From Candidatus Saccharimonadota bacterium (GTDB taxonomy: Bacteria > Patescibacteriota > Saccharimonadia > Saccharimonadales > Saccharimonadaceae): a stretch of 64,000 bases of DNA. The stretch is taken from contig JAGAEN010000018.1 in assembly GCA_017613135.1 (NCBI GenBank), positions 956-64,955 on the forward strand. Reading direction: 5' to 3'. This document shows positions 8,370-37,635 of the stretch, piece after piece. The translations under genes and the position numbers were made by a program. The notes beneath the pieces were generated by a model. It did no database searches, was not told the origin of the DNA, and saw only the letters and a program-made list of their open reading frames with translations. Position 1 is the stretch's first letter. Every line of letters starts with the position of its first letter.

Positions 8370-9070
8370 TAACTGGTTTAATCCCCCAAGTATTTTTGGA
8401 GGGAAGCGGGGGTTATCTGGCGCTATAATCACAACTATTGGCCACAACCTGGTCCGCTTTTCCCTTCTTTTGACCGCTTCACGCGAGGTGAAGCATTGAT
8501 CCTTGCTAGTTTTTTTCTTTCATTCTGGTTTATGCTATTTAGGAATGTACTAATGAAAGATTTACTAACGCGCTCTTAACGCTTTTCTAGCTTTCCTAAC
8601 GGAGTTAGTTTAGCTATTTTACTAGTTTTCACTAGCTTTGGCGGAGCTCTAGGTAATTCCTATTTGTAATTTATGGCTAGAAATTACCTTTTCGCCCGCC
8701 AAATTCTATGGTTTCTTTTGTTTTTTCATATTTTTAAGGTTTATTTTTAGTTTTTATTTTAGTCATCTCGACTGATTCCATATTAGCATAGACTTCTTAA
8801 AAATGCAAGAGGGTTGTTCAAATATTTTATTGTATTTTTTACAATGTGCTTCCCTGTTTCTCTCTGTTCTATTTTTTTGTTCGTTTTGTTGTGATTTTTA
8901 CAACGGTTGGCAGGGTTTTGTTGCCGTGGTCGACTATTTTGCTTCGCAAAAAGTCGTCCATAGTCAGGCGTTTTAAATAAAGGATGATAAAAACAGCAAT
9001 GCTGTTTTAGTTTAGGCTGGGCCTCTCCCAGAATAAATATATTTATTCTGGTCGAGCCTAGGCCTAAACT

Positions 9071-9098
9071 AAAAATAAGCCTAACGGCTTATTTTTTA
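9071..9098. terminator. Bidirectional rho-independent terminator just 3' of tmRNA
   Basis: Stem aataagcc, loop taac, stem ggcttatt, flanked by A-run and T-run. Confidence 0.6.
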
Positions 9099-9128
9099 TC
9101 ATCTTTTATTTCCCTAAATCTTCTTCAA

Positions 9129-9483
9129 TGGTGGAGCTGCCGGATACTGCCTCCGGGTCCGAGTCATCACGTGAGCATAATTCTACATACATAGTTTCCT
9201 GTTTTGGTTTTGGCGTGTGCTACTAGCTGCAAGAAACGAAACTGGTAACTGCCGTGGCTAAATTTTCGTGCCGCTTTTCGCCGCTAAAACGGCCTTAATC
9301 CCGTTGTATGATAATTCGTGCGCTACGGAATCTCACGCGTGAACCAGCCTAGAATAAATTAGGCATAGGCTGGCATGTACATGACATGCGCAGTTTTTGT
9401 GTTTTTAGCACTTATTAATACTTACGGTATTTAATCGGTATGCCTTATGCTTGTTAATGATCCGTCTAAGCTTTGTCAGCCCC
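9129..9483 (-). ncRNA. ssrA: tmRNA (SsrA)
   Basis: The minus strand starts GGGGCTGACAAAGC and ends GCAGCTCCACCA. The acceptor stem GGGGCTG/CAGCTCC has the G3:U70 alanine identity pair. Internal reading frame is GCT AAA AAC ACA AAA ACT GCG CAT GTC ATG TAC ATG CCA GCC TAT GCC TAA (9409 to 9359). TGATATAAT promoter at 9494-9502. Confidence 0.85.
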
Positions 9484-15633: not shown

Positions 15634-15716
15634 GCTGCCGGTGGGGCTATCTTTATTATATCATATTGGGGATGGATTTAAAATTCTATTTCTTTTCAGC
15701 GATGATATTTCGCCAA

Positions 15717-15792
15717 GATAAAAATTACAACATCAGTCATGTTTTCGCTCGCGAAGACAAGCTCTACTCGCGAAAACTGTGATATTGTAATT
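15717..15792 (-). terminator. Long imperfect hairpin plus T-run, likely terminator after the M50 protease operon
   Basis: Arms aattacaacatcag..gttttcgc and gcgaaaac..tgtgatattgtaatt. On the minus strand the hairpin is followed by tttttatctt. Confidence 0.45.
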
Positions 15793-15838
15793 CTTATATG
15801 GGCAATTTCATATGCTTCAAAGAAAAAAAATTTTAAAT

Positions 15839-16483
15839 CTAGGCACCGACGATGAAGTAGAATAGATGGAGTATACCGTCCATGCCGTTTATCATCAGGT
15901 TGGAGAAAACCTCGCCGAAGAGAAGGATGAGAATGTAGACTAAAATGACGCCGTAAACTTCCAGCGATTTTATAAAATTACGGACTAGGTCGGGAGAGAT
16001 GGCATAAAGGACACGGGAGCCGTCAAGGGGTGGGATAGGAATAAGATTGAATAACATAAAACCGAGATTAATAAAGAGTAGTTCGCTAAAAACAAAATCT
16101 AATAATTCCCCACCCCTGCCATAGAGAAAGCCAGCAAAATGACCGATGAGAAAGGCTAGGAATGCGATTAGAAAATTTGTCAAAGGACCGGCGATGGCGA
16201 CCAGCGCCATGCCCCACTCGCGACCTTTGAGATTGTGGTAATTGATGGGGACAGGTTTGGCGCCGCCGAAAACCGGGGCTTTTAAAATATACAAAATAAC
16301 TGGAATAAGAATCGACATATAGGGGTCGATGTGTTTAATGGGGTTAAAAGTCAGGCGGCCAGCGTCTTTTGCGGTATGATCGCCCAGCCAGTAAGCGACG
16401 ATGCCGTGGGCGAGTTCGTGCAAAATAACTGAAAAAACTACAATGAGAAGAACAATAATAATATATAATATATTGGCGTTCAT
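15839..16483 (-). CDS. Site-2 protease family (M50) membrane metalloprotease
   Basis: HELAHG zinc motif within multiple TM helices; LDG motif. Confidence 0.8.
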   Translation of the reverse strand: MNANILYIIIVLLIVVFSVILHELAHGIVAYWLGDHTAKDAGRLTFNPIKHIDPYMSILIPVILYILKAPVFGGAKPVPINYHNLKGREWGMALVAIAGPLTNFLIAFLAFLIGHFAGFLYGRGGELLDFVFSELLFINLGFMLFNLIPIPPLDGSRVLYAISPDLVRNFIKSLEVYGVILVYILILLFGEVFSNLMINGMDGILHLFYFIVGA

Positions 16484-17568: not shown

Positions 17569-18426
17569 TTAAAAATCATTAAATTTATTTATCACAAATG
17601 GATAAACTTGGTCGAGCGGAAGCCAAATAATATTTTTGTTGCGTTTGAACCAAGTGAGTTGACGCTTGGCGAGATGGTAATCTTCATAGAAACACTTCTC
17701 TTTGGCTTCTTCTTCAGTAAATTCGCCCTCGAGATATTTCCAGGCGTATTCGTAAATATCGCTTTTCATCGCTTGGCTTCCCCAACCGTAGGTTTTTACG
17801 AGTTTTTGAGTTTCATCATATAAATCATCTGAGAACATTTGGTCGATGCGCTTCTTTAATCTTTGACGCAAGATATCGGTAGGCCAATCTATGCCGATTA
17901 ATAAAAAATCACCTTTTATCTCTGTACGGTCTGAACAAGTTTTTTGTTCAATATCGCCGATTTTATGACCGGTGGGGCCCTTAAAATGGTAATCATAAAT
18001 TAACGCATCGATGTAAAGACCGGTGCCACCAACGATGATGGGGACTTTGCCGCGAGATTTAATGTCTTTAATTTTCTCCTCGGCGTAGGATTTCCAGTCG
18101 GCGACAGTGAAACGCTCGCCGGGCTTTACTAGGTCTATGCCGTAATGCGGGATACCTTGCTGTTCTTTCTTCGTGGGTTTGGCCGTGCCGATATCCATGC
18201 CTTCATAAATAGCGCGGGAGTCGGCCGAAATAATCTCGCCGTCGATGGCTTTTGCTATTTTGATGGAAACACCAGTTTTACCAGAGCCTGTAGGTCCCAG
18301 TATAACGATGGTGCTTGAAAAAGTACCTTCTCGGAACGCTCCCTCGCTCCCGTCGTTACGGGGCTCGGTCGCTCCGTGTTTGGCCCGTCGCCAAACATGC
18401 TCCTCGAAGGTGTCTTTTTCAAGCAC
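17569..18426 (-). CDS. miaA: tRNA dimethylallyltransferase with a repeat-encoded N-terminal extension
   Basis: GPTGSGKTG P-loop, SADSRAIYEGMDIGTAKP, and QLTWF. The GTG start overlaps the thrS stop. No alternative start lies between the inserted element and the P-loop. Confidence 0.85.
   Translation of the reverse strand: MLEKDTFEEHVWRRAKHGATEPRNDGSEGAFREGTFSSTIVILGPTGSGKTGVSIKIAKAIDGEIISADSRAIYEGMDIGTAKPTKKEQQGIPHYGIDLVKPGERFTVADWKSYAEEKIKDIKSRGKVPIIVGGTGLYIDALIYDYHFKGPTGHKIGDIEQKTCSDRTEIKGDFLLIGIDWPTDILRQRLKKRIDQMFSDDLYDETQKLVKTYGWGSQAMKSDIYEYAWKYLEGEFTEEEAKEKCFYEDYHLAKRQLTWFKRNKNIIWLPLDQVYPFVINKFNDF
18313..18424 (-). repeat. GC-rich hairpin element (family 1) translated in frame at the miaA 5' end
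   Basis: The core ctcgctcccgtcgttacggggctc... is homologous to the ileS copies. It is flanked by the inverted repeat gcttgaaaaagtaccttc / gaaggtgtctttttcaagc. Confidence 0.7.
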
Positions 18427-20177
18427 TACAAGCCTCTTAGATAGTCGGCGAGGGCGGAGAGTTTGATTTTTTCTTCTTTATCGCGAAGACGGAGAGAGAC
18501 GATTCCCTCTTCGACATCTTTCGGGCCGACAATGATAAGAACTGGGATTTTGAGGTCGGTGGCGCGTTTGATTTTCTTGCCAAGAGAATCGGCTGAGTCA
18601 TCTACAGTGAAGCGGAGTTCGTTGTATTTAAGTGGTTTGTCGAGTACGATGCCGCTTAGAGTGTCAGTAATTTTTTTGACATAATCAGAAACTTTGTCAT
18701 TTACGGTGACGATGCGAACTTGCTCTGGGGCGCACCAGAATGGGAACCAACCACCAGTGTGCTCAATAAAGACCGAAAGGAAGCGCTCAATGGAGCCGAG
18801 CGTAGCGTGGTGAATCATCACAGGGCGTTCTTTTTCGCCTTTTTCGTTAGTGAATTCGAGACCAAAGCGTTCCGGTTGGACAAAATCTAACTGAATAGTG
18901 GCAAGTTGATGCTCGCGACCGATGGCGTCTTCGGCCATAAAATCAATCTTCGGACCATAGAAGGCGGCCTCGCCTTCTTGTTCAAAATAATCTAGGCCAT
19001 TGTCGATAGCGGCTTGTTTGATTTGTTTTTGGGCCATTCCCCAAAGCTTCTTATCGCCGAGATATTTGTCTTCATCGGAACGGTAAGAGAGACGAGCACG
19101 GAGCTTCTGCATACCCATGGTAGTGTAAAGCTCTTTAACGATAGCGACTAGTCGCTTAACCTCATCTTTGATTTGATCTTTGCGGCAGAAAACATGCGAA
19201 TCATCTTGAGTGAGTGAGCGAACGCGCGAAAGACCGCCGAGCTCGCCAGTTTTCTCGTCGCGATAATCGGTAGTGGCTTCCATATAACGCACTGGCATCT
19301 CTTTATAAGTACGTGGGCGAGAAGCAAAAATCTGCGCATGGTGTGGACAGTTCATTGGTTTCATTGCAAAATCTTCACCATTAACTTGAGAATGGACCAT
19401 AAAGAGTTCGTCGCCGAATTTGGCATAGTGACCGGAAGTCTTATAAAGGTCGGTCTTGGTAATATGTGGGGTCCAAACTTTCTTAAACCCTTCACGGCCA
19501 CGTAAACTAAGCGAATAATTTGCCATTAATTCGCGGAGTTCTGTACCACGAGGAGTAAAGAGTGGCAAACCAGCACCAACCAAATCAGAGAAGCAGAAAA
19601 GATCTAGTTCTCTACCGAGTTTACGATGGTCGCGAGCTTTGGCTTCTTCTTGACGCTTCAAATATTCGTCCAACTCTTCCTGTGTATCAAAGGCAACACC
19701 GTAGATGCGAGTAAGCATTTCTCTTTTTTCATCACCACGCCAATAGGCGCCGGCAACGCGGATGAGTTTAAAGGCACCAACCTCACCGGTGTTTTTAACG
19801 TGAGGGCCTTTACATAAATCAGTAAAGACATCACCTAAATCGTAAAATGAAATCTCGGCGCTCTCTGGTAAATCTTCAATTAACTCAACCTTGTATTTCT
19901 GGCTGTGGTCGCGAGCCCAGTTTAAAGCGTCCATTTTGGACACGACGCGCTTTTCCATTGGAAGCTTACGGGCGATAATACCACGCATTTTCTTCTCAAT
20001 TTTCGGCAAATCTGCATCAGAAATCTTGGCGTCGCCGAAGTCAATATCATAATAGAAGCCATTGTCAATAGCTGGGCCGATACCGAATGTGGCTGTAGGA
20101 TAAAGCTCCTGTACCGCAGCAGCGAGTACGTGACTTAAAGTGTGCCTCATTTTTTCGAGATTTTCCTCTTTTTTCAT
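18426..20177 (-). CDS. thrS: Threonyl-tRNA synthetase (no N-terminal TGS domain)
   Basis: 583 aa. Editing motifs HTLSHVLA and CKGPH, plus class II core motifs. Confidence 0.95.
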   Translation of the reverse strand: MKKEENLEKMRHTLSHVLAAAVQELYPTATFGIGPAIDNGFYYDIDFGDAKISDADLPKIEKKMRGIIARKLPMEKRVVSKMDALNWARDHSQKYKVELIEDLPESAEISFYDLGDVFTDLCKGPHVKNTGEVGAFKLIRVAGAYWRGDEKREMLTRIYGVAFDTQEELDEYLKRQEEAKARDHRKLGRELDLFCFSDLVGAGLPLFTPRGTELRELMANYSLSLRGREGFKKVWTPHITKTDLYKTSGHYAKFGDELFMVHSQVNGEDFAMKPMNCPHHAQIFASRPRTYKEMPVRYMEATTDYRDEKTGELGGLSRVRSLTQDDSHVFCRKDQIKDEVKRLVAIVKELYTTMGMQKLRARLSYRSDEDKYLGDKKLWGMAQKQIKQAAIDNGLDYFEQEGEAAFYGPKIDFMAEDAIGREHQLATIQLDFVQPERFGLEFTNEKGEKERPVMIHHATLGSIERFLSVFIEHTGGWFPFWCAPEQVRIVTVNDKVSDYVKKITDTLSGIVLDKPLKYNELRFTVDDSADSLGKKIKRATDLKIPVLIIVGPKDVEEGIVSLRLRDKEEKIKLSALADYLRGL

Positions 20178-20239
20178 CTTTATCCTTTCTTTATCGTACT
20201 ATTATACCACACTTGATTATTTTCGGCGGGTCCTGTCAT

Positions 20240-20355
20240 AAACCCAAAAAATTCGTTTCTCGACGCGCTCACGCCGGCCCGTCGTTACGGGCGGCGCTTC
20301 GCTCACTTCGCTCCCGTTGTCGCTCAAAGGTCTCGAAATAAATATTTTTGGGTTT
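20240..20355. repeat. GC-rich hairpin element (family 1), intergenic copy overlapping the stop of the AEC transporter gene
   Basis: The core gccggcccgtcgttacgggcggcgcttcgctcacttcgctcccgttgtcgc is flanked by aaacccaaaaa / tttttgggttt. Confidence 0.65.
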
Positions 20356-21280
20356 AAACCAGTAAAAGCAGCACCATTAAAGGTAGCGTTGCGACGGAGA
20401 AAATGGTCGAAATGGTGACGAGCTCGGAAGATTCGGCGGCGTTGCCACCGTATTTGACGGCAAAAAGTCCAAGCGAAGTAGCGGTAGGAAGAGCCTGGAT
20501 GAGAGTGCAGACCTCAATGACTTCGATTGGAAATTGGAGCAAAGTGAGAATGCCCCACGTGACGAGCGGACCAAGAGTGAGTTGGATAAGCGCCGTGAGC
20601 ATTAAACGCCATTTTTTGAATACATTTTTTAACTTAGCTTGTGACAACATAAAGCCAATGCAAATAATCGAGAGTGGAGTAGTGGCGCCGCCGATATAAC
20701 CTACTGCATCTGTTAAAAAGCTCGGCAGCTTAATGCCGATAAGAAATAAAATCATACCTAAAATCACGGCGATGATATTAGGATTAAAAATAATGTTTAG
20801 TAATAGTTTTATGGAAATTTTTTGTTCAAAGAGCCAAATGCCATAAGAAAATAGTGCGATATTAAACGCGATAATGAACCCACAGTAGGCCAAAATGCCG
20901 CTCGCACCAAAAGTATTAGCCACAATGGGATAGCCGAGAAAAGTGGCATTATTAAAAATCATTGCGAATTGGGCTTCATCAGACAATTCCTTTTTCATCC
21001 ATTTTTTATTAAAAATAAGTTTAGCGAGAATAATTAGCACAAACATAATGAGAGTGCCAGCAAGGAGGCCGGAGAAAAACAAATTGGCGGAGTCCTGATT
21101 ATACTCTGAGGGGAAAGCCATAAAAAGTGAGGCTGGCATAAAGACCGTGAGGAGAAGGTTGGTAATTTGTTTGTTGGTGTGTTCGCTGATGATTTTGAAT
21201 TTACCAAGCAAAAACCCGAGCGTCATAATTAGCGCGATGGATCCAAGGCGAGCATAAAAGACAGAAAGTTCTATCTGCAT
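20354..21280 (-). CDS. AEC (auxin efflux carrier) family permease
   Basis: 308 aa, about 10 TM helices, typical AEC layout. Confidence 0.7.
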   Translation of the reverse strand: MQIELSVFYARLGSIALIMTLGFLLGKFKIISEHTNKQITNLLLTVFMPASLFMAFPSEYNQDSANLFFSGLLAGTLIMFVLIILAKLIFNKKWMKKELSDEAQFAMIFNNATFLGYPIVANTFGASGILAYCGFIIAFNIALFSYGIWLFEQKISIKLLLNIIFNPNIIAVILGMILFLIGIKLPSFLTDAVGYIGGATTPLSIICIGFMLSQAKLKNVFKKWRLMLTALIQLTLGPLVTWGILTLLQFPIEVIEVCTLIQALPTATSLGLFAVKYGGNAAESSELVTISTIFSVATLPLMVLLLLV

Positions 21281-31847: not shown

Positions 31848-33563
31848 TTAATAATCCATCCCCGCTCTTTCACTGGCTGAAGCGCCGGCGTTTCCAGCAG
31901 ATTCTGCGGCGTTAGCGGCAGCTTCTTCATCGGCTCTTCTTTGTGCCTCTTGTCTGGCGGCTTCTTCAGCTTGACGCTGACGTTCAGCTTCCTCGGCGGC
32001 AGCTTGTTCTCTAGCAGCCTGTTCGGCGGCTTGACGAGCGGCCTCCTCGGCTTTACGTTGGCGTTCAGCTTCCTCGGCGGCAGCTTTTTCTTCAGCTTCT
32101 TTTCTAGCAGCTTCCTCGGCAGCGCGACGAGCTTCTGCTTCCGCAGCAGCTTGGCGCTCGGCTTCTTCTTGCTCTCTTCTTATCCTTTCGGCTTCTTGTC
32201 TTCTAGCTTCATCTTCTTGTCTTTGTCGCTCCATATCATCGAAATTGGCTTGGTCTTCTTCTTGTTTTGTCGGCGGAGTTACGCTTTCGTCAAGCCCAGT
32301 CGGATTAACGCGTGGTCCGGCGTGCTCAGTTTCCTGACTTGGATCTTTGGTAGCTAGTGGAGTTGGGGTTGGAGTTGGGGTTTCTGGGGTTGGAGTTGGG
32401 GTTTCTGGGGTTGGAGTTGGGGTTTCTGGGGTTGGAGTTGGGGTTTCTGGGGTTGGAGTTTTTTTGCCGCGACGCAAAACTTCTAAACCTCCGATATGGC
32501 CATTTACCTCACCCTTCTCATTAGCAGAAGTGCGACGAATATTAACTAGCATCGAGCCAGTTTCCATACCATCTTTGTCTACCCAGTAAAATTCGACGAC
32601 CTCAACACCTGGGCCAATTCCTCTGTCAACGAGTTGCATATTTTCGTGTACTACTGCCCCATTTTTGTCTTTGAGTAACATGCCGTAGTGATGATAATCA
32701 TACTTGGTAATTGTGGTACGGGTGAGGGCCTCATCTAATGCATGCATTGCCTGAGCTTTAACTTCTTCATATTCATCAGGGCTGAGAGCTTCTAATTTTT
32801 TCTCGATGGCACGAGGCTTTAGTCCATAAAAACCTTCTGGGCATAAGTCTTTCGGAAACTCAGCCATATAATCGGCGAGGCTTTCTACTTGATTATCAGC
32901 AGTGTATTTGAGCATTTCTACTTCATCGTGGTCGCATACTTCGCTGACTTCTTTGGCATCACCATAATCATAGTCATGGTCCTTGTTCTTAGACAACCAG
33001 AGCCCTGGCTTATCATAGCCATCTTTGATGCCTTTCTCTGTTTCGGCAGTTTCTGTAATAGACGGGCGCTCTTCTTGGCCCACTTGTCCGATTCTATTAT
33101 TGAACCCGTCGGTGGCAATGCCAACTCCAATTAGCCCAGCTAGCGCAATAGTTGTTACTCCTATTATGACGCTGCGGAAAGATGAATTGTTTTTGGCTTT
33201 TTTCTTGACGTATTCAATTTTTGCCCTACGTGGAGCTTCTGGAGAATTGTTTTCATCGACGTTTTCGTCGACGTCTTCTTCGACGTCTTCCGATTCGTCA
33301 GTTTGTGGCGATTCTTCTAGCTTTGAATTCGGATTATTGTATTTATTTTCTTCGCTTTGTATGGCGGAAAGTCTTCGAAGAATTGCTATTTCCTCTTCGA
33401 TTTTGGCTCTTTTGGCCAACAGTAATTCTCTCTCTTTCATGAGAGCATCTCTTTTTGCAACGTCAAGAGTCATGCTTCCACGCTCTTTTGATATGTCACG
33501 CGATAACTCTTTGTTAGAATCCAACTCTACTTGATTGACAAATTCTGGGTTAGGCATTTTCAC
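31848..33563 (-). CDS. Membrane-anchored protein with TPTPETP repeats and long Ala/Glu/Arg/Gln-rich (TolA-like) C-terminus
   Basis: 571 aa. N-terminal coiled coil, TM helix IIGVTTIALAGLIGVGIA, a central globular region, and low-complexity tails. Confidence 0.6.
   Translation of the reverse strand: MKMPNPEFVNQVELDSNKELSRDISKERGSMTLDVAKRDALMKERELLLAKRAKIEEEIAILRRLSAIQSEENKYNNPNSKLEESPQTDESEDVEEDVDENVDENNSPEAPRRAKIEYVKKKAKNNSSFRSVIIGVTTIALAGLIGVGIATDGFNNRIGQVGQEERPSITETAETEKGIKDGYDKPGLWLSKNKDHDYDYGDAKEVSEVCDHDEVEMLKYTADNQVESLADYMAEFPKDLCPEGFYGLKPRAIEKKLEALSPDEYEEVKAQAMHALDEALTRTTITKYDYHHYGMLLKDKNGAVVHENMQLVDRGIGPGVEVVEFYWVDKDGMETGSMLVNIRRTSANEKGEVNGHIGGLEVLRRGKKTPTPETPTPTPETPTPTPETPTPTPETPTPTPTPLATKDPSQETEHAGPRVNPTGLDESVTPPTKQEEDQANFDDMERQRQEDEARRQEAERIRREQEEAERQAAAEAEARRAAEEAARKEAEEKAAAEEAERQRKAEEAARQAAEQAAREQAAAEEAERQRQAEEAARQEAQRRADEEAAANAAESAGNAGASASERAGMDY
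32359..32460 (-). repeat. Tandem 21-nt repeat (about 4.8 copies) encoding TPETPTP
   Basis: ggagttggggtttctggggtt repeated head to tail. Confidence 0.85.
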
Positions 33564-34557: not shown

Positions 34558-37500
34558 TTATATTTTCTCTAGTGAAATGGTGATGTTAGTACCGGAGACT
34601 TTGGCGATTTCGTCGTGGGCGTAGTTCATGTCTTTTTCGAAGGAGTCGGCGAGGACTTCAGATTTGATGAGCTCTTCAAAGCCTTCTGGCAAGTCAATAG
34701 AGAGCGAGAGCTTGATGCGGTCGTCCATACTTAGTTTGGCGTTTTTACGAGCGGATTGGATGGCGCGGATGAGATCGCGGGCGTAGCCTTCCCTTTTCAG
34801 TTCTTCGGTAAGGGTTTTGTCGAGAATAAAGGTGTCGCCTCGTTCAACTTTTTTGACGTTTACTTCGTCGGCAATGATTTGCTCGTAGAATGGGTCGAGT
34901 TTATCGCCAGTGTAGGTGAGCTTTGAAAGAGGTTGGCGGACTTTGATTTGCTCTTCAGTGTCAGACTTCTGCATTCTAAGGGCTAGAGCATCCGTGATGA
35001 TTTGGCGGGTGCGAGACATATTATCTAGCACTTTTTCATCGATTGGGCCAGCCTCAGGCCAGGTTGTAAGATGAATGGACTCGTTTTTGCCAGTCATTTT
35101 CTGATACAATTCTTCGGAAAGGAAGGGGGTAAAGGGAGCAAGGAGTTTCGCAGTATATATTAATACATGGTATAGTGTAGCAAAGGCGCTGGTTTTGTCC
35201 TTTTGGTCGTCGGTTTTAGAGAAACGACGGCGAGAGCGGCGGACGAACCAGTTGGAGAGATCATCAACAAATGGTAAGACGGGTTCGAGAACGGCGGGAA
35301 GGTTATAGGCGTTCATGTTCTCGGTGATAGCGTTTCTTAACTCGCAGGCACGGGAGATGATCCAGACATCCAATGGATTTGGAAGAATGTTTTTTCGGGA
35401 CGCTTCGTCGCGCCCGTCGTCACGGGGCTCCTCGCTTCGTGTGCTCCCGTCGTCGCACATGCCCCTAAAAAACACTTCTTCCAAATCCTTAGAATCGATG
35501 CCTTCAATCTCAGCATAGGTGGTGAAGAAGTCGTAGACGTTCCAGAGCATGGCGAGTTTACGGTTGACATCGGAAACGTCCTTATCCAGGAGAGCGAAAT
35601 CTTCGCCAGAGAGGACGGGACTGGAAAGCAGCAAGAAACGAAGGGCGTCGGCGGAGTACTGGTCCATCAAGATATTCGGGTCGGTATAATTGCCGAGAGA
35701 TTTGCTCATTTTGCGACCATCGTTCCCTGCTAGGGTACCGGTGGTAATGACGTTCTTGTAGGCATTTTTGTGGCCGTTTTTGGCTTTTTCGCCAAAGGCG
35801 CCGTTTTCAGCAAGAGCGGTATTTACAGCGTGGACATAGTAGAACCAAGCGCGGACCTGGCCGACGTATTCTACGATGAAATCAGCGGGATAATTACGCT
35901 CAAACTTCTCTTTGTTTTCGAATGGGTAGTGTAACTGAGCGAACGGCATAGAGCCGGATTCAAACCAGCAGTCGAGGACCTTTTCAATACGGGTGAAATG
36001 CTCACCGTCGATATCAAAGGTAATGGCATCGACCCATGGGCGGTGGTAGTCTTCAAGTTTTTGACCGGAAAGTTCATAAAGTTCTTCGTAGGAACCGATG
36101 ACCTTGATACTACCTTTGTCGCCCTTCCAGACTGGCATAGCGGTGGCCCAGAAACGGTCGCGGGAAAGGTTCCAGTCAGGGGCCTGTTCAATGTTTTTGG
36201 CGAAACGGCCGTGTTTTAAGTATTCTGGGAACCAGTTGATGTTTTCGTTTTCGGCTAGCATCAGAGGTTTTTGGCTCTCGATATCGAAGAACCAAGATGG
36301 GAAAGCGCGATACATAATGCGCTCTTTAGAGCGGGGGTTAAATGGGTATTCGTGCTGAATATAATCTATTTTATAGATAATTCCCTTTTCTTCGAGGCAT
36401 TTGGCGATGAATTTGTTGGCGGCCCAAATCTGAATACCGTGTTCGTCGGTGTCGCGGACGCCAAGGGCGTGGAGTTTGTCGGCGTATTCAGGCAAATAGT
36501 AGCCGTTTTCGTCGAGGGTGTCGACAAAAGCAATTTCGCCTTCGTGTTGTTTGAATAATTCATAGTCATCTTCGCCATAGGCAGGTGCAATATGGACGAT
36601 GCCGGTGCCTTCTTCGTCACCGACGAAGTCGGCGGTGAAAACTTGGCAGACAGTGCCATCTAGGGATTCGTATTTTAGGCCGGCGAGATCGGAGCCTTCG
36701 AAAGAGCGCTCCGGCTTCATATCGTTGAACAATTTTTTTGCAAGTTTTTCAGCAACAATTAATTTTTCGCCATCCACGTCATAGACGCCGTAGTGTAAAT
36801 CTTTGCTCACGGCGAGAGCACGGTTCGCCATTAAGGTCCAGGGCGTAGTGGTCCAGGCTAGGAATGCAAATTCAGAAATAGGTCTTTTTCGGGACGCTTC
36901 GTCGCGCCCGTCGTTACGGGGCTCCTTGCTTCGTGTGCTCCCGTCGTCGCACATGCCCCTCAAAAGACTTTTTTCTGAATTTGCTACCAATTTGAATTTT
37001 ACGTAGGCGCTGGGGTCGGTGACGGTCTGGTAGGCGTCATTGTCCATGGTGACTTCGGCTTTTGATACTGGGGTAGCGAATTTGGTATCATACATTAAGA
37101 CCTTGCGGCCTTCGTAAATTTTGCCAGCTTCATAGAGTTTCTTGAAGGCCCACCAGACAGATTCCATAAAATCTTTGTTCATGGTGCGGTAGCAGTTATC
37201 AAAATCCACCCAACGGCCGATGCGGTCGATGGTGGAGTGCCAGGTTTCGGAATTCGCGACCATAGATTCGCGAGCCTTGATGATATAGTCCTCGAGCGAC
37301 CATTTGGTGCCGATGTCGCGACGATCGGTGATGCCGAGCTGCTTTTCGACAAAATTCTCGGCGGGAAGACCGTGGCAATCCCACCCCCAACGTCTCTCGA
37401 CGCGGTAGCCGTTCATGGTATAGTAACGCGGAACAGCATCTTTGACGATACTAGAAAGCAGAGTGCCGTGGTGGGGCATACCAGTAATAAACGGAGGACC

Positions 37501-37635
37501 GTCATAAAAAACATAGGACTTATCAATCGGGCGATTTTCGACCGATTGTTCAAAAGTTTTGTTCTTTTTCCACCACTCAACGAGGGCTTTTTCATATTCA
37601 ATGGCTTTACGGCGATTGCCGGCCTGATATTTCAT
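34558..37635 (-). CDS. ileS: Isoleucyl-tRNA synthetase (type 2) carrying two in-frame repeat insertions
   Basis: HHGT (HIGH-like), WTTTPWTL, and KMSKS motifs. 1025 aa. Confidence 0.95.
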   Translation of the reverse strand: MKYQAGNRRKAIEYEKALVEWWKKNKTFEQSVENRPIDKSYVFYDGPPFITGMPHHGTLLSSIVKDAVPRYYTMNGYRVERRWGWDCHGLPAENFVEKQLGITDRRDIGTKWSLEDYIIKARESMVANSETWHSTIDRIGRWVDFDNCYRTMNKDFMESVWWAFKKLYEAGKIYEGRKVLMYDTKFATPVSKAEVTMDNDAYQTVTDPSAYVKFKLVANSEKSLLRGMCDDGSTRSKEPRNDGRDEASRKRPISEFAFLAWTTTPWTLMANRALAVSKDLHYGVYDVDGEKLIVAEKLAKKLFNDMKPERSFEGSDLAGLKYESLDGTVCQVFTADFVGDEEGTGIVHIAPAYGEDDYELFKQHEGEIAFVDTLDENGYYLPEYADKLHALGVRDTDEHGIQIWAANKFIAKCLEEKGIIYKIDYIQHEYPFNPRSKERIMYRAFPSWFFDIESQKPLMLAENENINWFPEYLKHGRFAKNIEQAPDWNLSRDRFWATAMPVWKGDKGSIKVIGSYEELYELSGQKLEDYHRPWVDAITFDIDGEHFTRIEKVLDCWFESGSMPFAQLHYPFENKEKFERNYPADFIVEYVGQVRAWFYYVHAVNTALAENGAFGEKAKNGHKNAYKNVITTGTLAGNDGRKMSKSLGNYTDPNILMDQYSADALRFLLLSSPVLSGEDFALLDKDVSDVNRKLAMLWNVYDFFTTYAEIEGIDSKDLEEVFFRGMCDDGSTRSEEPRDDGRDEASRKNILPNPLDVWIISRACELRNAITENMNAYNLPAVLEPVLPFVDDLSNWFVRRSRRRFSKTDDQKDKTSAFATLYHVLIYTAKLLAPFTPFLSEELYQKMTGKNESIHLTTWPEAGPIDEKVLDNMSRTRQIITDALALRMQKSDTEEQIKVRQPLSKLTYTGDKLDPFYEQIIADEVNVKKVERGDTFILDKTLTEELKREGYARDLIRAIQSARKNAKLSMDDRIKLSLSIDLPEGFEELIKSEVLADSFEKDMNYAHDEIAKVSGTNITISLEKI
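35381..35482 (-). repeat. GC-rich hairpin element (family 1), in-frame copy A in ileS
   Basis: The 76-nt core at 35391-35466 differs at 2 positions from copy B. Flanking inverted repeat is ggaagaatgtttttt / aaaaaacacttcttcc. Encodes RGMCDDGSTRSEEPRDDGRDEASRK. Confidence 0.8.
36873..36977 (-). repeat. GC-rich hairpin element (family 1), in-frame copy B in ileS
   Basis: Core at 36885-36960. Flanking inverted repeat is cagaaataggtcttttt / aaaagacttttttctg. Encodes RGMCDDGSTRSKEPRNDGRDEASRK. Confidence 0.8.

Follow-up and report, generated by a model that had tools for sequence, protein, structure and literature searches.

Rickettsia palindromic elements (RPEs) are short palindromic repeats that lie in frame in many housekeeping genes and are apparently translated, as described in a review that summarises Ogata et al. 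2000 (PMC10969869). The mitochondria of Nematomorpha carry coding palindromes, long inverted repeats in which both arms are coding and arm identity is apparently actively maintained, and for which conversion by template switching and a parasitic character were proposed (PMC6649704). In the mitochondria of the yeast Magnusiomyces, GC-rich palindromic byp elements are bypassed, according to a citation in the same paper (PMC6649704). [quoted passage not shown] Classical MITEs, such as Correia/CREE, ERIC, Nezha and the Coxiella QMITE, are small, non-autonomous, hairpin-forming repeats which have conserved terminal inverted repeats and target-site duplications from a parent insertion sequence and are mainly intergenic. 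REP/REPIN-RAYT and IS200/IS605-derived elements are extragenic, with conserved hairpins at or near their ends, without a long variable outer stem and with a Y1/HUH transposase. In the present work we analysed two GC-rich palindromic inserts, copies A and B, in the isoleucyl-tRNA synthetase (IleRS) gene ileS on a 64,000-nt stretch of DNA (hereafter the window; positions 956 to 64,955 of contig JAGAEN010000018.1, assembly GCA_017613135.1, Candidatus Saccharimonadota bacterium). We consider it probable, at roughly 70%, that A and B are members of a family of non-autonomous palindromic insertions of ~105–122 bp in gut and rumen Saccharibacteria that behave as RPE-like selfish elements.

The parallel with RPEs, drawn in a preliminary description of this DNA, holds at the level of behaviour: by analogy, these are elements of ~115 bp which lie in frame in essential genes and are probably translated. 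Like RPEs, they are dispersed palindromes of ~100–150 bp in a host-dependent bacterium with a reduced genome, they occupy fold-compatible loops of unrelated housekeeping proteins in frame, and no transposase is known for them. Unlike RPEs, of which roughly half lie in open reading frames (ORFs) according to the review (PMC10969869), 93% of the copies are in ORFs here; moreover, these have a conserved GC-rich three-way-junction core between variable arms. Conservation is also higher in orthologous copies than in the gene that contains them, in contrast to RPEs, whose repeats are said to become less alike with time (PMC6649704). We treat the family as an analogue of the RPEs and not as a member, set apart by host phylum and by the lack of recognised similarity, the sequences of the two not having been compared directly. 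The elements are small non-autonomous hairpins as MITEs are, but their termini are the least conserved part, with arms that differ among identical cores and only subgroups sharing 14–22 bp. Nematomorph palindromes lack a conserved mobile core and are not dispersed, whereas one core is common to ~100 copies here. Strand-specific hairpins as the likely active form recall REP/REPIN and IS200/IS605 elements, and the two hairpins of the core, behind both of which stands a direct ACGAAGCG-like repeat, recall left and right end hairpins; the present family differs in being 93% intragenic and in having a long variable outer stem around the hairpins. The searchable literature yielded no account of such elements from Saccharibacteria or the candidate phyla radiation (CPR), in line with the preliminary remark that its author was aware of none for CPR-like genomes, and the family is apparently undescribed.

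Two near-identical palindromic inserts in ileS

The gene and the two inserts lie at the following positions.

34558..37635, minus strand: ileS, isoleucyl-tRNA synthetase, 1025 amino acids, an ORF carrying copies A and B
35375..35488, minus strand: copy A, complete hairpin in ileS (core ~35391-35468; from fold and nhmmer)
36866..36984, minus strand: copy B, complete hairpin in ileS (core ~36885-36962; from fold and nhmmer)

The closest homologues of the ileS product are Saccharibacteria IleRS proteins with the Pfam domains tRNA-synt_1, Anticodon_1 and DUF5915. Upon alignment, A and B differed at 2 positions over a 76-nt core and were unrelated outside it; blastn gave 96.3% identity across 81 nt, and a 32-nt core word occurred exactly twice in the window and in none of 100 shuffles. 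The GC content of the cores was 67% (A) and 64% (B), compared with 49% for ileS and 38–49% for the window. The arms, which span 25 (A) and 23 (B) aligned positions, are AT-rich, unlike between the copies and complementary within each; in the mRNA sense they read GGATTTGGAAGAAGTGTTTTTT / AAAAAACATTCTTCCAAATCC for A and GCAAATTCAGAAAAAAGTCTTTT / AAAAGACCTATTTCTGAATTTGC for B. In the same sense each copy folded into one long hairpin, of −57.8 kcal/mol (z = −8.4) for A and −56.2 kcal/mol (z = −7.9) for B, with none of 200 shuffles as good in either case, and the opposite strands folded 4–8 kcal/mol weaker. A core-profile nhmmer search placed A at 35394-35468 (E = 8e-13) and B at 36888-36962 (E = 3e-12).

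Both copies are read in one shared frame and encode the peptide RGMCDDGSTRS(E/K)EPR(D/N)DGRDEASRK. Copy A lies in frame directly before ..NPLDVWII in the anticodon-binding domain, and copy B in frame three residues before ..LAWTTTPWTL at the entry to the editing domain. Both inserts fell into alignment gaps relative to the solved IleRS structures 8wnd and 1ile: at site A there are ~28–30 additional residues ahead of the PLDxW helix, and at site B, between the strand ending ..YVKFKL and ..LAWTTTPWTL, there are 36 residues compared with 2 in the solved enzyme. In an AlphaFold2 model of the protein, poor overall with a mean predicted local distance difference test score of 60.7, residues 227–253 and 723–750 were of low confidence and largely unstructured. 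The preliminary description had thus been right about two near-identical 76-nt cores in unrelated surroundings (alignment and blastn agreeing), about their GC-richness relative to context, about a shared frame with this peptide, which ORF translation reproduced, and about loop-like positions. Its account of the arms as AT-rich, copy-specific and complementary also stood, although the arm length of 15–17 nt that it gave was too short.

A family of palindromic insertions in Saccharibacteria

The core profile found exactly four copies in the window, so that the two reported at first are real but are not the whole set. The further copies are as follows.

18311..18426, minus strand: copy C, subtype GGAGC/GTTCC, diverged (from blastn-short, motif, fold and nhmmer)
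20239..20356, minus strand: copy D, subtype GAC/GTC, diverged (from fold and nhmmer)

Low-stringency blastn gave partial matches at 18331-18366 and 20277-20323, and a 14-nt mini-hairpin, CCCGTCGTYACGGG, occurred four times in the window, always on the plus strand (0.02 expected). When aligned and folded, the four copies showed a single common architecture, and the stable strand was the minus (coding) strand in all of them. Copy C, which contains the CCCGTCGTTACGGG motif, had the best nhmmer match (18329-18404, E = 7e-16) and folded at −65.4 kcal/mol (z = −10). It starts at the GTG that is the first miaA codon, immediately behind the stop of thrS, and is read in the same frame as the ileS copies (..ATEPRNDGSEGAFRE..) as an N-terminal extension of MiaA. 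As this GTG belongs to the 5′ arm of copy C, the element appears to provide the MiaA start together with a 38-residue N-terminal extension. At 18424-18428 the thrS stop overlaps the miaA-opening GTG (TAGTG), the GTG being the first triplet of the arm. Copy C has relatives elsewhere: one retrieved stretch (L084) matched both arms and the flanks, and two others (L037 and L043) were closely similar in the arms and downstream sequence, with open frames running through the element. Copy D (−50 kcal/mol, z = −5.7; nhmmer 20258-20329, E = 4e-11) lies between the gene of a 308-aa membrane protein and thrS, its 5′ arm overlapping the stop codon of the former, and is the sole copy in the window outside a long open frame.

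To retrieve the family beyond the window we used an exact 26-nt core pattern in hairpin 2, CCCGTRACGACGGGNNNGNNNNAGCG, with one genome per species scanned. The scan returned at least 118 stretches (Lnnn labels denote such retrieved DNA stretches, of 8 kb around the matches, and Pnnnn labels IleRS sequences from the protein database). Some 95 of these came from Candidatus Saccharibacteria or Nanosyncoccus assemblies, dozens of genomes from animal gastrointestinal tracts and other samples, and the remainder were chance matches in Streptomyces and similar high-GC genomes. The family thus comprises ~100 copies beyond the window among the matches listed, and the counts over 104 copies given below have the same scope. 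In this way the search for further copies that had been suggested yielded two in the window and ~100 in other Saccharibacteria.

All Saccharibacteria copies listed had the same architecture, with three main core subtypes. The whole hairpin is 105–122 nt long (typically ~115), and the core of ~76 nt is GC-rich and forms a three-way junction on a given one of its strands. Three parts make up this junction: the closing stem; hairpin 1, whose stem varies and whose loop is of the GACGACGGG type; and hairpin 2, in which CCCGTRACGACGGG is invariant. The core is bracketed by conserved YGAG...CGAR tetranucleotides that form non-Watson–Crick (tandem G.A) pairs and is enclosed by an AT-rich, variable outer stem of ~21 bp. 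The stems of hairpin 1 show compensating changes, being UGUGC/GCACA in A and B and UGUUUGGC/GCCAAACA in C, with at least 12 different compensating stems among the matches listed. In an alignment built without fitting to a structure, 82% of cells were paired under the junction model, compared with 64% for column shuffles and 35–48% for slid controls; the covariation score was 0.48 as against 0.18, and none of 500 shuffles scored as high. RNAalifold independently gave compensatory changes at 18 of 25 pairs. No Rfam 15 family covered the elements when the whole window was searched at the gathering score, and a permissive Rfam scan of copy A gave chance-level snoRNA matches alone (E = 0.7 and 8.9). 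Viral contigs scanned for the core gave no match.

A more diverged subfamily, in which hairpin 2 is CCCCTGTGGCGACAGGGG and the peptide is ..TTPVATGV.., was seen at L018:3040-6474 and in P0026, P0052, P0056 and P0067. The L018 IleRS also contains another in-frame repeat, present twice, TGD(M/A)PG(G/R)VPAEHPKGGAAGGKG(T/A)AGPV.

The great majority of the copies (97 of 104, 93%) were inside long open frames, and seven were not. Coding DNA is not depleted of the elements; in the window, ORFs of at least 180 aa cover at least 79% of the sequence. Of the 97 coding copies, 67 are read in sense (41 in frame 1 and 26 in frame 0) and 30 in antisense, where all three frames are used. A Pfam scan identified 30 hosts, including ArgRS, LeuRS, ValRS, LigA, Obg, MnmA, PriA, LepA, PolA (DNA polymerase I), FemAB, TatD, TruB, QueA, a GatA-like amidase, DnaX, TsaD, Der and a P-type ATPase; with IleRS, the hosts come to at least 19 housekeeping gene families. 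The encoded inserts are ~28–37 residues long and mostly hydrophilic.

Presence, absence and turnover in the IleRS loops

We compared the two IleRS sites in nine orthologues that the genome scan had retrieved and in 120 protein-database entries. Counting inserts of any kind, at least 22 extra residues were present at site B in 43 of 121 IleRS sequences and at site A in 76 of 121, and IleRS length ranged from 959 to 1226 aa among the homologues. Within the clade, the loops were found empty, filled by different core subtypes in different frames and orientations, or filled by other palindromes. In metagenomic IleRS loci (52–81% identity, none from the same species) one of 80 matched the core profile. 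The expectation that the segments are lineage-specific insertions was borne out: they are absent from the solved structures, rare in these loci and polymorphic within the clade.

Turnover was also seen within the species. P0001–P0005 are conspecific with the window (98–99% identity over core columns), the ileS gene of P0001 being 100% identical to that of the window over the first 600 nt and 99.5% over the last 600 nt. Copy A, arms included, is identical in P0001–P0003 (100% in the conspecific strain L201). In P0004 and P0005, 72 nt of it are deleted between GAAGAAG and GACGAAG, leaving ..DLEE|ASRKNILPNPLD.. in the protein. At site B all five contain, instead of copy B, a 170-nt near-perfect palindrome of about −97 kcal/mol with sharp boundaries. 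The exact site-B allele of P0001–P0005 was also present in P0070, which is only 86.7% identical elsewhere, indicating that loop alleles cross lineages through homologous recombination in the conserved host gene.

The 170-nt palindrome (L201:10643-10834, corresponding to window site ~36866-36984) belongs to a second, unrelated family, is in frame and encodes ..SKHCAGSDSHFDNGHGREADTEISGRVRLTRCENDDREPSTLRNGASKS..; related peptides occur at site A of P0026 and P0031 and a partial DNA match in L057, and this palindrome is absent from the window.

P0006, 92.7% identical over shared columns, is without both cores. We had taken it as a candidate empty site A and rejected it as such, because its DNA there, TTCCAAAAACAACCTCTCCCAAATCC, resembles the decayed right half of an element, TCCCGAAAAAACATTCTTCCAAATCC, and thus represents a remnant rather than a virgin site. 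In the IleRS homologue P0007 (1280 aa), the ..LLAWTTTPWTLP.. region occurs a second time behind an element peptide read in an antisense frame (..SRPSLRGS..), an arrangement that is either an element-mediated internal duplication or an assembly chimera.

Conservation and strand asymmetry of the core

Orthologous sites were 93% identical in the core and 85% in the arms, compared with 77% in the coding DNA on either side. One particular strand gave the more stable core fold in 103 of the 104 copies (mean −33.5 compared with −27.2 kcal/mol), and this strand carries conserved G.U pairs and the tandem G.A pairs. Wobble mismatches in the arms favoured the same strand by 46:24, with 28:16 in sense and 16:5 in antisense copies, small counts from copies that are partly non-independent. 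As the asymmetry was not flipped in antisense copies, the favoured strand is a property of the element and not of the host mRNA. The strand bias thus agrees less well with a regulatory role in the mRNA than with an element that acts as single-stranded DNA (ssDNA) or as an RNA of its own. Structure at the mRNA level as the sole constraint, a candidate we had considered, was weakened by the same wobble bias. Subtypes with a G.U-rich closing stem were mostly sense (32:8 and 7:0), compared with 19:20 for the Watson–Crick subtype, a bias which may reflect which frames yield tolerable peptides.

These properties raise the question of whether the core is a functional, strand-specific RNA or ssDNA module, selected locus by locus as, for example, a cis-regulatory or protein-binding element shared by translation and replication genes, with no parasite involved. 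Such a module would account for a core better conserved than its flanks, for the strong covariation, for G.U and tandem G.A pairs stabilising one strand in nearly every copy, for the sense excess of the G.U-rich subtypes and for the enrichment of the hosts for aminoacyl-tRNA synthetases, tRNA-modification enzymes and replication proteins. It would not account for the ~30% of coding copies that are antisense and have the same asymmetry, so that the favoured strand is often not the mRNA, and it fits poorly with presence, absence and replacement that differ among close relatives, even within a species, with the tolerated 72-nt deletion, with one loop being occupied by different subtypes and frames, or with the absence of an Rfam match. 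We regard it as unlikely.

Arms and core: what moves

Whether the whole hairpin or the core alone is mobile was examined by comparing arms among copies. In L082, three copies have 100% identical cores and unrelated arms. The outermost 3–10 bp of the stem differ from site to site but remain complementary; native conserved codons may be part of them, as with GCAAGA of the MnmA GHYAR motif. Site A shows a net gain of only ~28 residues despite a 114-nt hairpin, and independent subtypes at this site have the outer arms GATTTGG/CCAAA in common. All of these would be expected if only the ~80-nt core (YGAG...CGAR) were mobile and the arms arose by fold-back copying of the target (X-core-X′), with template return at microhomology. 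However, imperfect 22-bp arms, GCGAGGAATACCCTCGTTCGAG/CGAGAACGACGGGTATTCTCGC, are common to four unrelated hosts (ATPase, Obg, MnmA and FemAB), and a second arm type is shared by TruB, IleRS, QueA and ValRS. That arms of 14–22 bp, with the same bulges, recur in unrelated genes indicates that the arms travel with the element. In the filled and empty pair P0019/P0044, which are 94% identical, neither arm resembles the empty-site loop, and the identical cores of L082 are equally well explained by gene conversion. Mobility of the core alone therefore seems improbable to us; in its pure form, with arms copied from the target, we had favoured it at first from the comparison of site B with P0006, and it was the shared arms and the empty allele of P0044 that weakened it.

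Copy B has orthologues in L016, L064 and L074 whose arms are related to its own and covary with them (GCAAATTCAG/CTGAATTTGC, GCGGATTCAG/CTGAATCCGC and TAGATTCAG/CTGAATCTA); L064 shows a G.T intermediate. The stable folds and this covariation are what the preliminary description had proposed to look for. The hairpin-1 stem of A and B, TGTGC/GCACA, was found in no other retrieved genome among the matches listed except the conspecific strain. Thus copy B has arms orthologous to those of other species and yet the hairpin-1 variant of copy A, which points to conversion of the core. No direct repeat that would represent a target-site duplication was found at the junctions inspected, none of which was a fresh insertion with its empty site; there the flanks extend the inverted repeat by 3–10 bp.

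Reading frames and probable translation

Five of the six frames of the element are stop-free. The sixth, sense frame 2, has an obligatory stop (CCCG-TAA/TGA-CG) and was used by none of the 67 sense copies among the matches listed, where one-third would be expected if stops were irrelevant, a chance of ~(2/3)^67. The host frame ran on without interruption before and after the element, both in the ileS copies and in 94 extracted host frames. Since the stop-containing frame is not used, the elements appear to be read through by the ribosome rather than spliced out or bypassed, and we infer from the sequences that they are translated as part of the host proteins.

Removal from expression, either by splicing of a mini-intron or by byp-like translational bypassing, would leave proteins without the extra residues. 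Compact, very stable GC-rich hairpins within coding regions are what such a process might act on, but an open frame is kept through all 97 coding copies, which distinguishes them from byp elements, the stop-containing frame is avoided while host frames continue across the insert, and there was no match to a ribozyme or intron family. The frame statistics led us to reject this explanation, which we consider very improbable. They also bear on the level of conservation: identical element DNA read in five frames gives unrelated peptides, so that what is conserved is the nucleic acid and not the protein. An ordinary intragenic duplication in ileS, or an IleRS-specific peptide module selected at the protein level, as two near-identical same-frame copies in one gene could suggest, has a negligible probability, the former being refuted by copies in other gene families and intergenic DNA and by the dissimilar flanks of A and B, the latter by the reading of the same DNA in five frames, and both fitting poorly with inserts absent from solved IleRS and a core in 1 of 80 metagenomic loci.

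A model for spread and maintenance

According to the RPE-like reading, whole hairpins would have inserted into many housekeeping genes, surviving only where the reading frame was kept and the hydrophilic peptide fell in a tolerant loop. Gene conversion, with ragged tracts, would make the cores within a genome uniform. The two arms of one copy would co-evolve, most likely through hairpin-templated (template-switch) correction, by which the stem would also creep outward by a few base pairs; template switching is an established mutational process and was likewise proposed for the nematomorph palindromes (PMC6649704). Related strains would exchange alleles, whether filled, empty or alternative, by homologous recombination via the conserved host gene, and copies would be lost by microhomology-mediated deletion. 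Translation, selfishness, gene conversion and template-switch maintenance are the inferred parts of this model, whereas membership of one family, the coding location and frames, the polymorphism, the structure with its covariation and strand asymmetry, the arms common to unrelated hosts, the transfer of alleles and a deletion remnant were demonstrated.

Several points weigh against this reading. The use of a single exact hairpin-2 pattern biases the sample to conserved cores. Conservation above that of the host genes, together with the strand asymmetry, is unlike a purely decaying parasite and suggests constraint or active maintenance. The argument that the elements are translated is drawn from the statistics of reading frames. 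We observed neither a transposase (Y1/HUH genes not having been sought across whole genomes) nor a target-site duplication nor a fresh insertion, so that mobility is deduced from the distribution of the copies.

A more far-reaching proposal, which we put forward only tentatively and rather doubt, is that these are hairpin elements of a new kind, with the conserved core as their recognition module, which act from one specific strand as ssDNA or as their own RNA. Such an element would be actively maintained through core conversion, arm-to-arm template switching and flank capture and would colonise surface loops of essential proteins across a CPR clade, served by an unrecognised enzyme in trans or co-opted as a cis element of housekeeping mRNAs.

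If the RPE-like reading is correct, the family would be a second, independent case of the RPE phenomenon in another host-dependent lineage with reduced genomes, and such an independent recurrence suggests a general link between a host-dependent lifestyle and tolerance of parasites in coding regions. In practical terms, closely related Saccharibacteria differ by tens to hundreds of residues in the length of their proteins, and the inserts interfere with alignments, phylogenies, orthology calls and the prediction of structures; they also provide strain-level markers and direct evidence of allelic recombination. A core that is conserved, arms that vary, the asymmetry between strands and a conservation above background point to an uncharacterised mechanism of maintenance or mobilisation, which is now testable since natural filled, empty and remnant alleles are available.

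Other features of the window

Of the ORFs of at least 180 aa in the window, 38 of 42 are on the minus strand. The plus-strand GC skew is positive across the whole window and the AT skew mostly negative, so that the coding strand is C- and A-rich.

Two other palindromic regions were noted. An intergenic nested hairpin at 15675-15839 has 26-nt AT-rich arms (85% complementary) around 113 nt with an inner palindrome, TTTTCGCGAG...CGCGAGCGAAAAC; it had no Rfam match at the gathering score and may represent either a small RNA or a further repeat element. At 8975-9111 there are two nested palindromes (37-nt overlapping arms, and 19-nt arms at 95%) directly downstream of the following gene, which are probably its terminator region, although unusually elaborate.

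9129-9483, minus strand: tmRNA gene

Finally, a 571-aa ORF at 31848-33563 (minus strand) contains a run of (ETPTPTP)n and, at its C-terminus, a long stretch of low complexity rich in E/A/R/Q, and looks like a surface or secreted repeat protein.

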